DNA from: Candidatus Saccharimonadota bacterium
GTDB lineage: Bacteria; Patescibacteriota; Saccharimonadia; Saccharimonadales; Saccharimonadaceae
Direction: 5' to 3'
DNA length: 32,000 nt
Assembly (NCBI GenBank): GCA_023898645.1
Contig: CP060232.1
Span: forward strand, 240,001 to 272,000
Below are positions 21,161 through 27,470 of this stretch, one piece after another. The translations under genes and the position numbers were made by a program. The first letter of the stretch is position 1. Every line of letters begins with the position of its first letter. The notes beneath the pieces were generated by a model that did no database searches, had not been told where the DNA came from, and saw only the letters and a list, made by a program, of their open reading frames with translations.

Positions 21161-21212
21161 CCCAACAATAATGGGTGAGAACAGAGGTAAACTTGTTGGG
21201 AAGTCCCAACAA
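21161..21212. promoter_or_regulatory. Three-part 8-mer motif upstream of the OLD gene (possible operator or alternative-pairing element)
   Basis: CCCAACAA (21161-21168), TTGTTGGG (21193-21200) and CCCAACAA (21205-21212). The last two form a perfect 8-4-8 palindrome. Confidence 0.4.
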
Positions 21213-21273
21213 CGATCAAACGAAGTTTAGAGAATTGACAAGTAACCATAACCATTTTGTAAATACTGAATTA

Positions 21274-21282
21274 TGGTATACT
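21274..21282 (+). promoter_or_regulatory. Extended -10 promoter (TGgTATACT) for the OLD gene, probably leaderless
   Basis: TGGTATACT ends 6 nt before the ATG at 21289. The same geometry is seen at many core genes in this window. Confidence 0.45.
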
Positions 21283-21288
21283 TGGCCT

Positions 21289-23223
21289 ATGAAATTAGCA
21301 GAAATAAAAATTAGAGGCTACAAGTCTATAGACGAGCTTGATTTCCCCATACAAAAGTACGGAAAGAGCTACGCCACCATCTTATTGGGTAAAAATGAAA
21401 CAGGTAAAAGCAACGTTCTTGACGCAATTGCAATGACCAAACTGGCGGATAGCAAGGAGGGTGAAACCAGTTTCACGAAAATTAGGAACAGAAAAACCAA
21501 GCCAAGCAAAGTTTCTGTACTGTTTAACTTTTCCGTTGAGACTACCGATGACTATAAGACCGCTCTTATTGAGGCGCCTAATATAGAGTTACCCGATAGT
21601 CTCGTGAACAGCATCAAACTTACCAATATAGTAAAAGAGGCGTACATAAAAGACGGCGATGACAAGTATGGTGTTAGTTTTGATTTTCTCTACGATACAG
21701 TCCCTCGATTGAGCACTTACGGCGTCTTGTTTGCCACAGAACAGGTGCCAGCACAAGCCACAACACCACCTACTCCTGCAAAAACTGTTGAAAAAATCAC
21801 GGTCAAAAAGCTGGCAAGTATCACAGAAAAAGAGGAGGCAGACAAGTACTTAGAATTGAGTGATGATTTACTAAAAGGAATAATTGAAAAAGCACTCGTA
21901 GGCTTCGCAACAAAAAACACCAAAGTGGTTGTAGACAGATGGGAATACGAGCCTAGGTATTTAATCCAAGACAAGATTAAACTAGACGATTTTGTCCAGA
22001 ATGAAGATAATATACCACTTGAGAACATATTTTACCTTGCTGGTTATAAAACATACGATGAAATTGCAAAGGTAATCGAAGAGATAAAAAAAGATGACAA
22101 TGAGAGACGTAGCTTAAGTACAAACTTAACCAAAAAAGCCACTGAGTATTTACATAAAAAGTGGAAAGAACACAAGGTTGATATAGACGTAGAGGTAAGT
22201 ACGGATTACACCGTCAGGGTGACTGTTCAAGATGAAGCTGACACTGGTAACTATTATGATATGATCGACAGAAGCCAAGGCTTTCAGCAGTTTGCTTCAC
22301 TTTTATTTAGTATCTCTATAGGCAGTGCTTCGGGTAGTGTTAAAAATCACGTGATCCTTATTGACGAGCCTGAAGTTCACTTACATCCGTCTGGAGTGAG
22401 ACATATGAGAGATGAGCTATTGAAAATCGGCGAGAGTAATTATCTTTTCGTCTCTACCCATTCCAATTTTATGATAGACGGCAAGCAGAAAGAGCGCCAC
22501 CACCTGCTTACAAAAGGTGACGATAATTCGACTGAAAAAAAGCAAATCAAGACAGAGGAGAACATCAACAATGATGAAGTTCTCGAAACTGCATTCGGGA
22601 TAAACATTATTCTAGATTTTGTATCACCCCACCTATTGCTCGTAGAGGGTGACGACGACAAACAACTACTTGAAAAAGCTCTCAGTGTAGTCAAGCCAGA
22701 TAATGATATAAAGATTAGCAACGGCACAGGTTCTAATATAGTAGCTGATGCTTCTCGGTTAGCCTTCCACGATGTTATACCATTGGTTGTGTCAGACGAC
22801 GATGACGACGGAAGGCAGTATCAAACTGACATACAAAAAATCGGTAAGAATGACTTTAAAAACAAAGCCTTTACGCTCTATGGTTTAACCAGCGACATAG
22901 CAGAAAAGGGTACTATTGAAGATGCAATTCCAATTGGTTTTGTTCAAGACAAGTCTAACGAGGTTCTACACGATAACGGCTTTTCCGACATAGCGCTCGA
23001 CCCCTCCTCTCCGTTTTGCGAGCAAATAAAGTTACACCTTCGAAAAGAGATAAAAGATGTCAGGGGCAAAGCTAAGACGGTTAAAGTTAATAACTTGACT
23101 GCTGTAATTAAAGGTAAGGCTACTGAGTATCCTATAAAAGATATATCGGCTACGACTTCACCTATATTGTTCAAACTAGCAGAAGCAATACTAGCTAAGT
23201 TTGAATTAGCTGACGTCAAATAA
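21289..23223 (+). CDS. OLD-family nuclease (ABC-type ATPase plus Toprim), single-polypeptide (class-1-like) architecture
   Basis: MKLAEIKIRGYKSIDELDF...ILLGKNETGKSNVLDAI (Walker A). QGFQQFASL, VILIDEPEVHLHPSG (Walker B/D-loop), LFVSTHSNFMID (H-loop). C-terminal Toprim with HLLLVEGDDDKQLL and VVSDDDDDGRQ. The start at 21289 removes an unsupported 38-aa GTG extension. Confidence 0.8.
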   Translation: MKLAEIKIRGYKSIDELDFPIQKYGKSYATILLGKNETGKSNVLDAIAMTKLADSKEGETSFTKIRNRKTKPSKVSVLFNFSVETTDDYKTALIEAPNIELPDSLVNSIKLTNIVKEAYIKDGDDKYGVSFDFLYDTVPRLSTYGVLFATEQVPAQATTPPTPAKTVEKITVKKLASITEKEEADKYLELSDDLLKGIIEKALVGFATKNTKVVVDRWEYEPRYLIQDKIKLDDFVQNEDNIPLENIFYLAGYKTYDEIAKVIEEIKKDDNERRSLSTNLTKKATEYLHKKWKEHKVDIDVEVSTDYTVRVTVQDEADTGNYYDMIDRSQGFQQFASLLFSISIGSASGSVKNHVILIDEPEVHLHPSGVRHMRDELLKIGESNYLFVSTHSNFMIDGKQKERHHLLTKGDDNSTEKKQIKTEENINNDEVLETAFGINIILDFVSPHLLLVEGDDDKQLLEKALSVVKPDNDIKISNGTGSNIVADASRLAFHDVIPLVVSDDDDDGRQYQTDIQKIGKNDFKNKAFTLYGLTSDIAEKGTIEDAIPIGFVQDKSNEVLHDNGFSDIALDPSSPFCEQIKLHLRKEIKDVRGKAKTVKVNNLTAVIKGKATEYPIKDISATTSPILFKLAEAILAKFELADVK

Positions 23224-23256: not shown

Positions 23257-23484
23257 TTAACGGCCTTGTTCGTTGCGTATGTTCGTATTTGCAAAACCAC
23301 GCTTTGCCATAGCTTCGTCAAAAGTCTTGTCCATATACAACATATCGCCAATCCAGCCGATGAAAAAGTAGTTTGCTGATACACTTCTCCAGAAGGCGCC
23401 CTTGGCGTTGCCTAGATACCAGCGGTTAATCGGCAGTATAAAACTACAGTAGGTTAATGTTTTGTAAGTTTTGCGGTCTTTCAT
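23257..23484 (-). CDS. TM2-domain-like mini membrane protein
   Basis: 75 aa from the ATG at 23484, with AGGA 9 nt upstream. INRWYLGNAKGAFWR...FFIGWIGDMLYMD resembles the hRFYLG...W-x-x-D pattern of TM2 domains (recollection). Confidence 0.45.
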   Translation of the reverse strand: MKDRKTYKTLTYCSFILPINRWYLGNAKGAFWRSVSANYFFIGWIGDMLYMDKTFDEAMAKRGFANTNIRNEQGR

Positions 23485-23527
23485 ATTAGACATTCCTGTT
23501 TAGTTACTATTAACCGTTAGAGTGTCT

Positions 23528-23557
23528 TAAATAAAAAGGGACACCGCCAACGGTGTC
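23528..23557 (-). terminator. Intrinsic terminator at the 3' end of the structured leader (minus strand)
   Basis: The minus-strand RNA reads GACACCG-UUGG-CGGUGUC followed by CCUUUUUAUUU. It lies about 35 nt upstream of the TM2-like start codon. Confidence 0.55.
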
Positions 23558-23676
23558 TAAACTGTTTTTTCCGCAATAAGCTTTCACCTACTGTTTCGGG
23601 CGATGCCCCTTTCTAAGGTGAAATGCCCCGAACGGAAAAACCGACGGTTTCTTATTGCGTATTTTACAGTTTAGAC
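23528..23676 (-). ncRNA. Candidate structured RNA, either a riboswitch-like 5' leader of the TM2-like gene or a stand-alone sRNA (~150 nt)
   Basis: A minus-strand TGcTATAAT places the predicted +1 at 23676, the first base of an 11-bp closing helix (GUCUAAACUGU/ACAGUUUAGAC). A second helix is CGCAAUAAG/CUUAUUGCG. Inner helices are AAACC/GGUUU and UUUCACC/GGUGAAA. UUCGGG/CCCGAA has pseudoknot potential. The element ends in a terminator that shares 3 nt with the closing helix. Confidence 0.45.
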
Positions 23677-23692: not shown

Positions 23693-23725
23693 CCGTGTTT
23701 GGTGAAGAAGAATTATTGTATAATA

Positions 23726-23734
23726 TGTTATAAT
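23726..23734 (+). promoter_or_regulatory. Extended -10 promoter (TGtTATAAT) for the TIR operon; a second TATAAT lies at 23719-23724
   Basis: There are tandem TATAAT boxes. A CTAGACTAGA direct repeat follows. The leader carries a GGGAAGGA RBS before the ATG at 23780. Confidence 0.45.
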
Positions 23735-23779
23735 CTAGACTAGACCTTATCTGTAAAAACACAGATGGGAAGGATAAAA

Positions 23780-24364
23780 ATGACGCAGTTTGATGAGCTA
23801 TATAAGGCTTTATACGGAGCCAATCCACCCCAAAAGAAGCCTGTACCGTCGGCTAGCTTGTCTGCGTTTTTGCGTCCCGTACAGCCAGCGCCCCGAGTTA
23901 ACACGGGGTTTTTAGGTTCACAACAAAAACCCCTTGTTAAGTTCAGAAAGCCAAAGGTTTTTGTTAGTTTTGACTATGAGCACGACCGTATATACAAACA
24001 AGCTCTTGATATGTGGGATGCAAATAAGCGTTTCGATTTTACGTTTCAAAGCCACACCCCAAATGAAATACAATCCTTCAACGTGGGTCGCATAAAAGCC
24101 GTTCTTACAACCAAAGTCAAAGAAGCTACCCACGTTATTGTGCTAGTCGGCAAATATGCCAATCAGGTGCACCCCGACACGAAGCTTATAGGTTTTCGAA
24201 ACTGGATAAACTTTGAAGTTTATCAAGCCAGACTTTATAAGAAGAAGATCATCTGTGTAATGCTAGATAACAACAACACGTTACCCGAGTGGTTAGTGAA
24301 CTCTGGTGCAACTCTGGTGAGGAGTTTCAATGAAAAAGACATAATAGAGGCACTTAAAAAATAA
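23780..24364 (+). CDS. ThsB-like TIR-domain protein (DUF1863 / PF08937-type) with a roughly 60-aa low-complexity N-terminal extension
   Basis: KVFVSFDYEHDRIYKQAL (the first TIR strand motif), THVIVLVGKYANQ, and RNWINFEVYQARLYKKKIICVML. The last contains the W-x-x-x-E helix with the conserved Glu, followed by a K-x-I-I-x-V strand. I chose the ATG at 23780 because of the GGGAAGGA RBS. Confidence 0.75.
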   Translation: MTQFDELYKALYGANPPQKKPVPSASLSAFLRPVQPAPRVNTGFLGSQQKPLVKFRKPKVFVSFDYEHDRIYKQALDMWDANKRFDFTFQSHTPNEIQSFNVGRIKAVLTTKVKEATHVIVLVGKYANQVHPDTKLIGFRNWINFEVYQARLYKKKIICVMLDNNNTLPEWLVNSGATLVRSFNEKDIIEALKK

Positions 24365-24373
24365 CTTTTTATT

Positions 24374-25003
24374 ATGACTAAATTATCAGAAGACACAAAG
24401 CTATCCGTACTAAGTGAACACTATAACAACACTGTTGATGGCTTTAAGAAACTTGGCAAGTCAAGAGAGTGGAACTTTACTGCAATACTTCTATTGCTCG
24501 TTGTAATGGCTTTCCAGTACGTATCACCAGATCAGTCGGAAAGCGTACTTACCCAACTTGTTCAGAAACAACTCGGCGTAGACGTAAGCATTAGCATTAG
24601 AGTGATTGGATCGCTTGTCTGGTTTGCTTTATTGTATGTTGCGATTAGGTACTTTCAGAGTGTTATTAACATTGAAAAACAGTATAACTATACCCACCAG
24701 TTAGAGAAAGAACTGGCGAAGAGTTATAAGGGTAAAGCGTTTACTCGTGAGGGTAAGGCATATCTCAATAACTATGCAATTTTCTCTGACTGGGTACATA
24801 TTGTTTATTGGTATATTTTCCCAGCACTTTTCCTGCTAGCTATTACCGCAAAAATTGCAGGCGAATGGCTTGTTGACGCCTCTAACTTAACTTCCGTACT
24901 TCTAAATACGCTAATTTACGTATCTCTCTTTTTATCAACAATTTTGTACGTATACTCTTTACATAAAACAAAGAAGAACACTGAAAAGGACTTACGACAG
25001 TAG
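24374..25003 (+). CDS. 4-TM membrane protein of unknown family, co-operonic with the TIR gene (candidate effector)
   Basis: 209 aa, starting 9 nt after the TIR stop. Soluble N-terminal helix. TM1 FTAILLLLVVMAF and TM2 IRVIGSLVWFALLYVAI. A charged helix follows (EKQYNYTHQLEKELAKSY). TM3 VHIVYWYIFPALFLLAI and TM4 LLNTLIYVSLFLSTILYVY. No enzymatic or known ligand-binding motif was recognised. Confidence 0.6.
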   Translation: MTKLSEDTKLSVLSEHYNNTVDGFKKLGKSREWNFTAILLLLVVMAFQYVSPDQSESVLTQLVQKQLGVDVSISIRVIGSLVWFALLYVAIRYFQSVINIEKQYNYTHQLEKELAKSYKGKAFTREGKAYLNNYAIFSDWVHIVYWYIFPALFLLAITAKIAGEWLVDASNLTSVLLNTLIYVSLFLSTILYVYSLHKTKKNTEKDLRQ

Positions 25004-25073
25004 ACTTTGACATAGGCTTCATCATATACCACAAAACAGTTGAACCTAGACACAAGGTATAATGGTAGAAAAT

Positions 25074-26885
25074 ATGGCTACAGATGATAAAAAAGCTAAA
25101 CCCTACGCGAGACAAGAGCTCACACCTCTTAGTGATGAGCAATTAAAACAAGCGGAGCAAGTTGTTGCAGAGAGCCTTAAAGACAACCCTGAGCTATTTA
25201 ACCTGCCTGATACCAAATACACCGTCGATAGCCTTGTAGACTTCTTTGTACAGTCCCTAGAAGGTAGTAGAAAGATATTACCCAAAGAAAAAAGACGATA
25301 TGTTATTTACCTACGTAAATCTACAGACGATGAAAGAAAACAAGTGAGGTCTATCGAAGACCAACGGAAAGAGTGCTTAGATCTAGCAAAGAGGCTTGAT
25401 ATAAAAGTTAGACCAGAGGATATTTTCGATGAACGGTGGTCGGCTAAAACCTCTGGTAAACGTGACATTTTCAACGCTATGATGAACGGTTTTGAGATTG
25501 GCAAATACCACGGTTTAATCTCGTGGTCACCTGATCGTTTATCACGAAATATGTTAGAGGGTGGACAGATTATCGAACACGTCGACCACGAAAAGATACA
25601 GGATCTGCTGTTTTGCACCTACGCCTTCGATAACACCCCAAATGGCAAGATGATGCTAGGCATCTTGTTTGCCACATCGAAGCAATATAGCGATAAGCTA
25701 GCCGTAGATGTTGCACGAGGTATTACGGGTGCTATTCACGAGGGAAAGTATGTCGGACTTGTTAAAAAAGGCTACTATGCAGATATTGACACAGGTAGGT
25801 TTATGCCAGATGGCGTGCACTGGCAACTATTACGCCAAGCCGTTGCAATGAGGCTCAAAGACGGCAGAACAAACCAAGAGGTAGCGGATTTTCTCAATGC
25901 CTCAAACTTTAGTTTTCGTAAGAGCCAAGATGACACGTATAAAAAAGCAAAGATGGACAAGAAGACGGTCGCTACAATATTCACTGACCCGTTTTATACA
26001 GGTGCTTACAAGTACGGTGACAATATAACCAACCTGAACGATACTTACAACTTTCTACCCCTTATGACACCAGACGAGTTTATTGCTCTAAGTCGCAATA
26101 TGTCCGACAGCTTTAACGCAAAGTTTGTTGGTCGCAATAATGTTTCCAAAAGGCTTGAGTTTGGCTTACTGAGAGAGAAAGTGATCTGTGACTATTGTAG
26201 TAAGATTATGACCTTTCAGCGTACCCAAATCAAACGTGGTAAAAATGCTGGTAGCTGGCAATTAACGTACTACTGTCGCAACAAAGATTGCGTACGTCAT
26301 AATGACGAAGAGGCGATAAGAAAGTACGGCAAAAAACTAGCTAGAAGCGTTAGTGCTAGGTTTATTACGGCACATATCGAATGGACGCTACGCCATATGA
26401 CCGCTAATATCCTTGAGGCTCATAAGCATTATATTAGCCGTATAGAAAAACAAGTGGCGATAGACAAAGAGATAGCAAAACGTAAACTATCAGAGGCTAG
26501 AGCAGAGTTAAAACGCCAAAAAGACAAGTACTCACAGTATCAGAGCTTTCAAGTTGAAGACCCAGAAACATATAAAAAGCACCACGCTGGCAAATTAGAG
26601 TTTCACCAAGCACAGATTAACGCTGTAAACGCTAGCCTCGCTTCTCTGCAAAAAGAGCTAGACGGCTTAAATAAAGCTTTGCCATCTCGTGAAGAGTTTG
26701 TTGAACTCATTAAGTCTTATCTTAAAACTATACTACAGACACGGGATTTGATTGAAGAAGACGCAGTGTATCGTGAGCTAGTGTTGAACCTACGTGCTGG
26801 CGACAACGCCGTATCTGTTATAAAGCTAAATCCACCATACGATATGATGGTGGATTTTAGCAAAAATACTTCTTGGTCGGGGTGA
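25074..26885 (+). CDS. Large serine recombinase (resolvase catalytic domain, recombinase domain, zinc ribbon and coiled coil)
   Basis: YVIYLRKSTDDE (catalytic Ser), SWSPDRLSRN, recombinase domain, CDYCSKIM...YYCRNKDC zinc ribbon, then a long coiled coil. The last four codons and the stop (TGG TCG GGG TGA) lie inside the 3' end of tRNA-Pro. I prefer the ATG at 25074, which is 10 nt after TATAAT at 25058-25063. Confidence 0.9.
   Translation: MATDDKKAKPYARQELTPLSDEQLKQAEQVVAESLKDNPELFNLPDTKYTVDSLVDFFVQSLEGSRKILPKEKRRYVIYLRKSTDDERKQVRSIEDQRKECLDLAKRLDIKVRPEDIFDERWSAKTSGKRDIFNAMMNGFEIGKYHGLISWSPDRLSRNMLEGGQIIEHVDHEKIQDLLFCTYAFDNTPNGKMMLGILFATSKQYSDKLAVDVARGITGAIHEGKYVGLVKKGYYADIDTGRFMPDGVHWQLLRQAVAMRLKDGRTNQEVADFLNASNFSFRKSQDDTYKKAKMDKKTVATIFTDPFYTGAYKYGDNITNLNDTYNFLPLMTPDEFIALSRNMSDSFNAKFVGRNNVSKRLEFGLLREKVICDYCSKIMTFQRTQIKRGKNAGSWQLTYYCRNKDCVRHNDEEAIRKYGKKLARSVSARFITAHIEWTLRHMTANILEAHKHYISRIEKQVAIDKEIAKRKLSEARAELKRQKDKYSQYQSFQVEDPETYKKHHAGKLEFHQAQINAVNASLASLQKELDGLNKALPSREEFVELIKSYLKTILQTRDLIEEDAVYRELVLNLRAGDNAVSVIKLNPPYDMMVDFSKNTSWSG
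26874..26880. repeat. Right copy of the 7-bp direct repeat TGGTCGG (candidate att core, the tRNA 3' end)
   Basis: Complement of CCGACCA (tRNA positions 70-76). Identical to 20700-20706. Confidence 0.5.
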
Positions 26886-26949
26886 AAGGACTCAAACCTT
26901 CGACCTCTCGGTCCCAAACCGAGCGCGCTATCAACTGCGCCACACCCCG
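26874..26949 (-). tRNA. tRNA-Pro (anticodon UGG), 76 nt, CCA encoded
   Basis: Hand-folded cloverleaf. Acceptor CGGGGUG/CACCCCG, D stem GCGC/GCGC, anticodon stem CUCGG/CCGAG with loop UUUGGGA, variable loop AGGUC, T stem GAAGG/CCUUU, discriminator A, CCA. Confidence 0.93.
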
Positions 26950-27020: not shown

Positions 27021-27470
27021 ATGACAAAGAGCAAAACGTACCACTTGTTTCATGTTGTCACAAAGCGCCAACCAATACGCTTTGCACTCGTCGGTGTCGC
27101 CAATACGGCAGTCGATTTCGGAGTGTTATTTGGTTTGACAATTTTTTTGCACGTGCCAGTACTTGCTGCGAATATCGTGTCTACAAGCGTAGCTATGGCC
27201 GTCAGTTACCTACTTAACAAACGGGCAGTGTTCCGCGACACCGATATACACAATCGTCAGCAGGTAATGCTGTTCGTTGTCGTTACATTGACGAGTTTGT
27301 GGGTACTACAAGGATTTGTGCTAAGCGCTGTAACGGCGTTATTGTGGGTCGCGACAAATGTGAATCCTGAAATGACACTTTTGATTGCAAAATTGACAGC
27401 TACTGCTGTAAGCCTCATGTGGAATTACACATTGTACAGTCGTGTCGTATTTAAAAACGGTCGAAAGTAA
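27021..27470 (+). CDS. GtrA-family membrane protein
   Basis: 149 aa, four TM segments. RFALVGVANTAVDFGVLFGL N-terminal GtrA signature. Confidence 0.8.
   Translation: MTKSKTYHLFHVVTKRQPIRFALVGVANTAVDFGVLFGLTIFLHVPVLAANIVSTSVAMAVSYLLNKRAVFRDTDIHNRQQVMLFVVVTLTSLWVLQGFVLSAVTALLWVATNVNPEMTLLIAKLTATAVSLMWNYTLYSRVVFKNGRK

Follow-up and report, generated by a model that had tools for sequence, protein, structure and literature searches.

What does a ThsB-type TIR protein work with when the gene behind it encodes a small membrane protein that matches no described family? The question is raised by two adjoining genes in a 32,000-nucleotide stretch of a Candidatus Saccharimonadota genome (contig CP060232.1, positions 240,001 to 272,000), which is called the window here and whose own numbering is used for all coordinates. 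Gene 1 (23780..24364, forward strand) encodes a TIR protein of 194 aa, or of 199 aa if translation starts at 23765. Gene 2 (24374..25003, forward strand) encodes a 209-aa protein with four transmembrane (TM) helices, referred to as the 4TM protein, which is the presumed effector of the pair. Our answer, which we consider probable while leaving real room for doubt, is that the module is a two-gene abortive-infection system of the Thoeris type in which a nucleotide signal made by the TIR protein gates the 4TM protein as a membrane effector. A preliminary description of the locus, made from the DNA letters and their open reading frames (ORFs), had arrived at a Thoeris-like interpretation, and the present analysis supports it. 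The layout given there, with two ORFs, a second protein of 209 aa and a 9-nt gap, agrees with the ORF list and the coordinates, in which the 4TM start codon follows the TIR stop codon (TAA) after exactly 9 nt. Since each of the two proteins has hundreds of homologues, neither ORF is a product of chance.

Gene 1 encodes a ThsB-type TIR protein. The Pfam family ThsB_TIR (PF08937) matches residues 66-171 with E=1e-10, which exceeds the gathering score, and the PADLOC models ThsB1 and PDC-M50B match at 8e-12 and 8e-7, respectively. The PADLOC candidate system PDC-M50 was considered as an identity for the module and rejected because the TIR protein alone matches, through PDC-M50B, and gene 2 matches none. 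An AlphaFold2 model built with 38 homologues has a predicted local distance difference test score (pLDDT) of 82 overall and above 90 through the domain. When this model was searched with Foldseek, the best match in the PDB was the Bacillus cereus TIR structure 8fz9 (E 3e-6, template modelling score 0.71 on the target), and further matches included ThsB (9b7d), EcThsB2 (8v6t), EcThsB (8wcf) and the TIR domains of SARM1 and TIR-1. The ThsB-type TIR fold claimed at the outset is therefore upheld both by the family match and by the structural neighbours. The preliminary description had also singled out the Glu of a W-I-N-F-E-V motif as a retained catalytic residue. This Glu of the NWINFEV sequence (E146 in the 194-aa form, E151 in the 199-aa form) corresponds in the alignment to the Glu in the WVRYE motif of B. 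cereus ThsB (BcThsB) and to the same Glu of type VII Thoeris TIRs, and it is invariant across 38 aligned ThsB-type homologues, so the claim holds. We take the WVRYE Glu of BcThsB to be its catalytic residue E85.

Directly before the W-x-N-[FY]-E motif, the clade of 4TM-linked TIRs carries an insertion of ~10 residues (H.D...IG[FY]) that, in our alignment, is not present in BcThsB or in SLATT-linked TIRs. In the window TIR the insertion is encoded at 24155-24200 (residues ~126-138 in the 194-aa numbering) and lies in the loop before the Glu-bearing helix, where it is well ordered in the model and where His131 and Gly138 are invariant. Such an element might alter the product of the enzyme or touch the effector. 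At the other end of the protein, an N-terminal extension of ~58 residues (23780-23955) consists of a short helix and then a Pro-rich linker of low confidence. By hand count, the first 59 residues include 9 Pro and 5 Gln, and the model is mostly disordered there, which matches the Pro/Gln-rich extension of roughly 60 aa reported in the preliminary description. The TIRs of Saccharibacteria (those of the window, of loci L001-L006 and of L110) share the extension motif M(M)xQFDELYKALYGxNPPQ..P..SLSxFLRP, followed by the Pro-rich linker, which varies in length. The extension is confined to the Saccharibacteria copies; elsewhere the protein is a bare TIR of ~141 aa starting MAKKKVFVSFDY. It could act as a lineage-specific sensor or tether.

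The 4TM protein was analysed by hydropathy, charge distribution and structure prediction. Hydropathy places its TM segments at residues 33-51 (TM1), 73-91 (TM2), 141-161 (TM3) and 175-193 (TM4), with a charged helix and a loop separating TM2 from TM3. Lys and Arg together number 6 in the N-terminus, 7 in the region between TM2 and TM3 and 5 in the C-terminal tail, and 2 and 0 in the remaining two loops, a distribution from which a topology with both termini inside is predicted. The resulting order is an N-terminal cytoplasmic helix (containing H16, Y17 and R31), TM1, an outer loop, TM2, a cytoplasmic stretch from residue 92 to 140, TM3, TM4 and a basic tail. The AlphaFold2 model is all-helical (pLDDT 78; predicted template modelling score 0.72), and in it a long helix extends from TM2 to residue 117. 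Hydropathy and model thus bear out the four TM helices and the charged helix between TM2 and TM3 that had been described from the translation. Conservation of the 4TM protein peaks at its predicted cytoplasmic face. There are 22 positions at which one residue occurs in at least 80% of 111 4TM sequences; 13 of these lie in the cytoplasmic stretch 92-140 (Y93, Q95, E101, K/R102, Y104, Y106, H108, E111, R125, E126, G127, Y130 and Y134) and three more in the cytoplasmic N-terminal helix (H16, Y17 and R31). The helix and loop of residues 92-140 carry the motif RYFQ..IE.QY.Y.H.LE ... FTREG..YL..Y, and many of the conserved cytoplasmic positions hold Tyr, Arg, His or Glu. The least conserved parts of the protein are the two outer loops and the tail.

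Family and fold searches assign the 4TM protein to nothing that is already known. Searches of Pfam, PADLOC, NCBIfam and PHROGs gave no match for it, and these negative results bear out the earlier statement that gene 2 contains no SIR2, SLOG, Macro or nuclease domain. When 111 diverse members of the family were each scanned against Pfam (E<=0.05), no family recurred and neither SLATT, S_4TM nor DUF2270 appeared; the weak matches that were returned (DUF1600, YpmT and others) are scattered and under the cut-off. A transporter or housekeeping identity was rejected because no Pfam match is consistent over these members, and with NCBIfam also giving no match, the protein stands outside such families, as the preliminary description had it. 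A Foldseek search of the model against the PDB and BFVD returned generic helical bundles only, the best E being about 0.15-0.5. No signal-binding module (SLOG, Macro, SLATT, DUF2270, DUF6650 or others) was found in the 4TM protein across Pfam, PADLOC, NCBIfam, PHROGs, the PDB and BFVD, and a new ligand pocket is possible. One suggestion made at the start did not survive, namely that gene 2 faintly resembles the SLATT effectors. A SLATT test set was built from a TIR-linked SLATT protein of Staphylococcus chromogenes (DUF4231 1e-23, SLATT_1 2e-10), which yielded 86 homologues, of which 45 were aligned. Comparison of the 4TM family with this 45-sequence alignment by hhalign gave a probability of 0.5% and a score of 15, below the 17.7 of a negative control in which the 4TM family was compared with the TIR. 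No signal was obtained by hhalign with the full length, the N-terminal half, or relaxed or global settings, and 0 of the 111 members match any SLATT model (E<=0.05). A SLATT relationship was rejected on these grounds, and the likeness in layout (an N-terminal helix, two TM helices and a conserved helix) is a resemblance only.

The evidence that the two genes function together comes from their distribution. A profile search over 1.84 billion representative proteins (clustered at 50% identity) gave 860 members of the 4TM family at E<=1e-3 and 655 at E<=1e-10, and the best 150 matches listed are mostly about 200 aa long. Among species-representative genomes, members are encoded in Saccharibacteria, Gammaproteobacteria, Comamonadaceae, Desulfobulbaceae, Omnitrophota, Opitutales, Elusimicrobiales, Chloroflexota and one archaeon of the Methanotrichaceae. 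In all 22 loci from these genomes a TIR homologue lies directly upstream of the 4TM gene on the same strand, and no third gene is common to the 22. Addition of 80 metagenome loci gave 102 in total, 7 of which have no room upstream, leaving 95 that are informative. The 4TM gene adjoins a TIR gene in every one of these 95, so that the pairing is obligate and the co-conservation of the two genes is confirmed. In 91 of them the neighbour is the same ThsB-family TIR, directly upstream, mostly with a slight overlap or a gap of 0-20 nt (full range -58 to +103 nt). The other four loci (L036, L038, L063 and L087) have a different TIR, of the Pfam family TIR_2, directly downstream of the 4TM gene, and in L087 this partner is fused to a STAND NTPase. 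The 4TM translations of L036 and L087, read by eye, keep the conserved motifs. This exchange of the TIR with retention of the 4TM motifs fits a 4TM protein that acts downstream of the TIR and reads its product rather than a particular TIR surface. Operons with two TIRs also occur, in the order TIR-4TM-TIR in L049 and L097 and TIR_2-ThsB-4TM in L112, and they resemble multi-ThsB Thoeris. A tblastn search for the module in phage and plasmid collections gave no match, and the module was seen on one viral contig only. An identical protein is on record under a "Candidatus Nomurabacteria" metagenome-assembled genome (MAG), and the nearest relatives are from Saccharibacteria MAGs.

Two of the loci with a TIR_2 partner show further features. 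At L087:4998-8259 the 4TM homologue is followed by the TIR_2-nSTAND_NTPase4 fusion beside an integrase-like gene, and the fusion amounts to an NLR-like sensor with a TIR output. At L036:5678-8046 the TIR_2 protein has a C-terminal coiled coil (…RERILGRIEKANQLIDEYENIILMSEDPKEK…) that reappears at the N-terminus of the next ORF (…RQRILARIERANELIDDHENTLLLSESAKEK…), which suggests a shared homotypic adaptor module.

The full extent of the TIR ORF in the window is 23765-24364, and the ATG at 23780 is its likely start because the ribosome-binding site (RBS) GGGAAGGA precedes this ATG and the NCBI annotation gives the same 194-aa product. A putative promoter and RBS region, read from the letters, occupies 23717..23779 on the forward strand, with a candidate extended -10 element TGTATAAT and then a second TATAAT ahead of the ATG. 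A promoter upstream of the TIR gene is absent from the output of the consensus scan, and we infer it as likely from the direct reading. A terminator-like bidirectional hairpin at 23539-23558 ends the preceding unit and divides the module from a small ORF on the minus strand.

How might such a pair work? In the mechanism that we propose, the ThsB-family TIR protein would sense phage infection and, by means of its conserved Glu, turn NAD+ into a diffusible signal derived from ADP-ribose. The leading guess for this signal, weakly held, is canonical cyclic ADP-ribose (cADPR), because the nearest characterised TIRs, which belong to the same published cluster, make cADPR. The signal would bind a cytoplasmic pocket of the 4TM protein formed by H16, Y17 and R31 of the N-terminal helix together with Y93, Q95, Y104, Y106, E111, R125, E126 and Y130. 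The 4TM protein would then oligomerise or open in the membrane, whereupon membrane integrity would collapse and phage replication would stop. What we infer here is that infection is sensed, that a signal is produced and bound by the effector, that a pore forms and that protection against phage results; we do so from what was observed: the catalytic TIR of the ThsB type, the obligate pairing, the replacement by TIR_2, the multi-TIR operons, the conservation facing the cytoplasm and the defence or mobile surroundings, to which is added the precedent of the validated Thoeris types II, V and VII, which show that small membrane effectors can be under the control of a signal made by a TIR.

Several points weigh against this signalling mechanism. 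The pairing probably belongs to a "4TM" class of TIR operons that has been catalogued by Yirmiya et al. (bioRxiv 10.64898/2025.12.03.692087, December 2025) but is not among the types validated experimentally, and the same preprint cautions that the TIR of an unverified type could itself be an effector that depletes NAD+. Neither Pfam nor Foldseek against the PDB and BFVD revealed a recognisable domain or fold for nucleotide binding in the 4TM protein, and the loop that bears the FTREG motif is modelled with low confidence (pLDDT <50 at residues 126-137). The window TIR is only 24-30% identical to the type VII TIRs that make cADPR and has the clade-specific insertion of ~10 residues near the Glu; given the low identity and an insertion beside the catalytic residue, the signal may differ from cADPR. 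Finally, the close coupling of the genes in an operon would fit a physical complex of the two proteins just as well.

Some of these same observations lend themselves to a bolder version of the signalling mechanism, which we put forward tentatively and with distinctly less confidence. The 4TM protein may be a new kind of receptor whose pocket is built from juxtamembrane helices only, and the His-containing insertion of the TIR may lead to a signal unlike the known cADPR isomers or His-ADP-ribose (His-ADPR). The pocket as proposed would combine H16, Y17 and R31 with RYFQ...ExQYxYxHxLE...TREGxxY and would be unrelated to SLOG, Macro, SLATT or DUF2270. If this is true, TIR immunity would gain an effector fold not seen before and perhaps also a novel signalling molecule, even in the tiny genomes of the candidate phyla radiation (CPR) and in archaea.

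The main rival to signalling, which we regard as unlikely, turns the roles of the two proteins around. The TIR protein would be a toxic effector that depletes NAD+, and the 4TM protein would be a membrane sensor, anchor or inhibitor that detects envelope or injection events caused by phage and releases or activates the TIR by direct contact. Many bacterial TIRs are NADase effectors, an option that the preprint raises for unverified types as noted above, but a TIR that acts as an effector usually comes as a fusion with a sensor or ligand-binding domain, whereas here the TIR is a bare protein of ~140 aa in most phyla. The conserved catalytic Glu is in keeping with depletion of NAD+; the TIR that carries it is nevertheless of the ThsB signalling type and groups with TIRs that produce signals. 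Translational coupling, with the 9-nt spacer in the window and overlaps or 0-20 nt in most loci, would also suit a toxin and its keeper. A 4TM protein that senses the envelope would be expected to show constraint in its outer loops, however, and these are its least conserved parts, while in L087 the partner is a TIR-STAND protein with a sensor module of its own.

Less likely again is direct contact between the two proteins with no diffusible signal, for which we see little probability. A phage-sensing TIR would dock on the conserved cytoplasmic face of the 4TM protein and open it, and its Glu would be kept for some other purpose, such as self-association or ADP-ribosylation of the partner. The absence of a known ligand-binding fold in the 4TM protein speaks for such docking, as does the tight coupling of the genes, and the cytoplasmic surface that is conserved could just as well be a contact site for another protein. 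On the other side, a small molecule is employed in every validated Thoeris type, and the invariance of the Glu in the 38 aligned ThsB-type homologues argues for catalysis. The clade-specific insertion of the TIR could be the docking element, yet four loci pair a normal 4TM protein with TIR_2 proteins that lack the insertion and stand in the opposite gene order.

The neighbourhood of the module is that of a small mobile island. Upstream, at 21175..23223 on the forward strand, lies a gene for an OLD-family-like ABC ATPase with a TOPRIM-like C-terminus (AAA_15 5.5e-24 and AAA_21; PADLOC AriA 4e-28 and Old 1e-27, along with a fused AriAB model), whose translation contains the TOPRIM-like motifs VEGDDD and SDDDDDG. 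It is a candidate for a second, independent defence gene on the island, with no partner gene evident. A three-gene system that includes this ATPase was considered and rejected because the ATPase is not co-conserved with the module in the 22 genome loci. Between the ATPase gene and the module, on the reverse strand, lies a 78-aa ORF (23257..23493), which an independent assembly (L106) likewise annotates as a gene; it had no match in any hidden Markov model library scanned, and it contains an RWYLG...GWIGD motif reminiscent of TM2-domain proteins. Downstream of the module, a large serine recombinase is encoded at 25062..26885 on the forward strand (Resolvase 9e-19, Recombinase 8e-7; PHROG integrase 1.9e-47). 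Its true start may be the ATG at 25074, given the position of a promoter-like TTGAAC/TATAAT pair immediately upstream. The 3' end of the recombinase gene overlaps by 12 nt the 3' end of the opposite-strand tRNA-Pro(TGG) gene (26874..26949, reverse strand; ARAGORN), at which the island probably integrated and which probably forms its right-hand end. GC content is 0.38-0.40 across the island and 0.44-0.49 outside, rising again past tRNA-Pro, and housekeeping genes (RNase Y, queuosine salvage, GtrA, AhpC and NhaA) bracket roughly 20.5-26.9 kb. A search for direct attachment (att) repeats of useful length found none, and the absence of long repeats is expected for a serine recombinase; the ends of the island are placed solely from GC content, the tRNA and the housekeeping genes to either side. 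The mobile island beside an OLD nuclease-like gene, to which the preliminary description had pointed, is thus recovered through the PADLOC Old match, the recombinase at tRNA-Pro and the low GC content.

Other loci place the module in comparable surroundings. A related genome (L110) has the same trio of TIR, 4TM and recombinase genes and lacks the ATPase, and in another related genome the recombinase lies 3.5 kb from the module. In a qualitative survey of 36 longer loci that took in the two closest ORFs to either side, made with no enrichment statistic, the commonest neighbours were DNA methylases, restriction endonucleases, Vsr, phage integrases, transposases, extra TIRs and Mokosh MkoA, so that the defence and mobile context anticipated for the module recurs well beyond the window. 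A role other than defence against phage, as a toxin-antitoxin-like addiction module that stabilises the island or as a conflict system of an episymbiotic CPR bacterium against its host or competitors, is to our minds the least probable explanation of all: the Saccharibacteria module does travel with a large serine recombinase, HipA and RelE/HigA-type genes do lie near some related modules, and a CPR bacterium does have a host-dependent lifestyle, but the pair also occurs in free-living Proteobacteria, Verrucomicrobiota and Chloroflexota and in an archaeon, where the neighbours are entirely different and often restriction-modification genes, and the TIR cluster concerned was picked by Yirmiya et al. 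for its enrichment in defence islands.

In bacteria, plants and animals alike, nucleotides derived from TIR activity serve as immune signals, and every new Thoeris effector has so far brought to light either a further signal or a different way for one to be read. The 4TM family is widespread, always linked to a TIR, and without an annotated domain or known fold, which makes it a tractable target for asking what signal is produced, by what means a bare membrane protein recognises it and how the cell is killed or arrested. It also shows that genome-reduced CPR bacteria carry candidates for signalling-type abortive infection on small serine-recombinase islands. The novelty is tempered, as the pairing has already been catalogued computationally and several analogous systems of a TIR with a membrane effector have been validated.

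How, then, does the module compare with systems that are already known? The closest point of reference is the preprint of Yirmiya et al., in which TIR operons were sought in defence islands and 29 putative Thoeris types were delineated (10.64898/2025.12.03.692087). Types V-XI were validated in that work, Thoeris now counts 11 validated types, and the validated membrane effectors without a classical sensor domain include DUF2270 and SLATT proteins and an ion channel. The "4TM" category of its Table S1 and Fig. 1C holds about 35 TIRs, all from TIR cluster 2727267812, and is putative, lying outside the validated types. Like the window module, this class is a two-gene arrangement of a TIR and an effector with four TM helices. 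Over the whole domain, the 4TM-linked TIRs of the preprint share 37-54% identity with the window TIR, and they carry the same insertion before W-x-N-[FY]-E, whereas three SLATT-linked TIRs of cluster 2727267812 show 24-30% identity to it. They also reach 80% identity to the TIR of one of our genome loci (L011) and 87% to that of a metagenome locus (L055), each of which adjoins a 4TM homologue, and the TIR-x-TIR gene numbering in Table S1 matches the TIR-4TM-TIR loci described above. No contig name in our metagenome scan matched Table S1, and a scan of viral contigs with a Table S1 TIR returned nothing. On this evidence we think that the window module belongs to the "4TM" class, with the identity of the effector family drawn from the TIRs only. 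The window copy differs from the class in coming from a CPR bacterium and in the additional N-terminal extension of its TIR. Two statements of the preliminary description need amending in this light. The pairing of a TIR with a novel membrane protein stands insofar as gene 2 matches no known family, but "4TM" effectors beside the same TIR clade had already been listed. Likewise, the contrast drawn between a bare membrane effector and known Thoeris systems is right about the lack of ThsA domains and is overtaken by the several validated types that now have bare membrane effectors.

Among the validated systems, type VII Thoeris, which pairs ThsB with the SLATT effector ThsH and uses canonical cADPR, is also a combination of a ThsB-type TIR and a small helical membrane protein. 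Both ThsH and the 4TM protein have conserved cytoplasmic helices, the Bacillus type VII TIRs and the 4TM-linked TIRs belong to one published cluster, 2727267812, and the type VII TIR of Bacillus licheniformis from this cluster makes canonical cADPR (10.64898/2025.12.03.692087). The logic of a ligand-gated membrane effector is likely common to type VII and the window module. The two differ in the number of TM helices, which is four in the 4TM protein and two in SLATT effectors, and in that no SLATT/DUF4231 match was found in the 111 4TM members; the TIRs are only 24-42% identical, and those of type VII lack the insertion of the 4TM-linked TIRs. In the course of the survey, a DUF4231/SLATT_1 gene overlapping a ThsB_TIR gene was seen beside a site-specific integrase on the Staphylococcus chromogenes plasmid NZ_CP031273 (L103, 2061-2899), an arrangement suggestive of a type VII-like Thoeris module carried by a staphylococcal plasmid. 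Separately, the Acinetobacter pittii plasmid pC54_003 (L104, 1855-4701) carries two TIR genes, a gene for a TPR-repeat protein and a third TIR gene, adjoined by a RelE/HigA pair, and may hold another multi-TIR signalling operon.

A TIR signal passed to a membrane effector is likewise the scheme of type V Thoeris (ThsB with the three-TM DUF2270 protein ThsF, and 3'cADPR) and of type II (ThsB with a TM-Macro protein, and His-ADPR). In type V the ligand pocket is thought to lie between the protomers of a bare membrane protein without a classical sensor domain. Compared with these types, the 4TM protein has no PF10028 or Macro match, and TM number and TIR cluster differ; with respect to type II, the 209 aa of the 4TM protein are fully accounted for by helices. 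For type I, neither SIR2 nor SLOG was found by Pfam or PADLOC in gene 2 or in the ORFs at 21175-23223, 23257-23493, 25062-26885 and 27021-27470. Further afield, the membrane effectors of cyclic-oligonucleotide-based antiphage signalling systems (CBASS), such as S_4TM (PF18159) and Cap14/Cap15-type proteins, are also small, span the membrane several times and are gated by a nucleotide second messenger. In contrast to CBASS, the 111 4TM members have no S_4TM match (E<=0.05), no CD-NTase is conserved nearby, and the partner is always a TIR. The module is an uncharacterised effector variant of the diverse Thoeris theme, carried here on the serine-recombinase island of a CPR bacterium.

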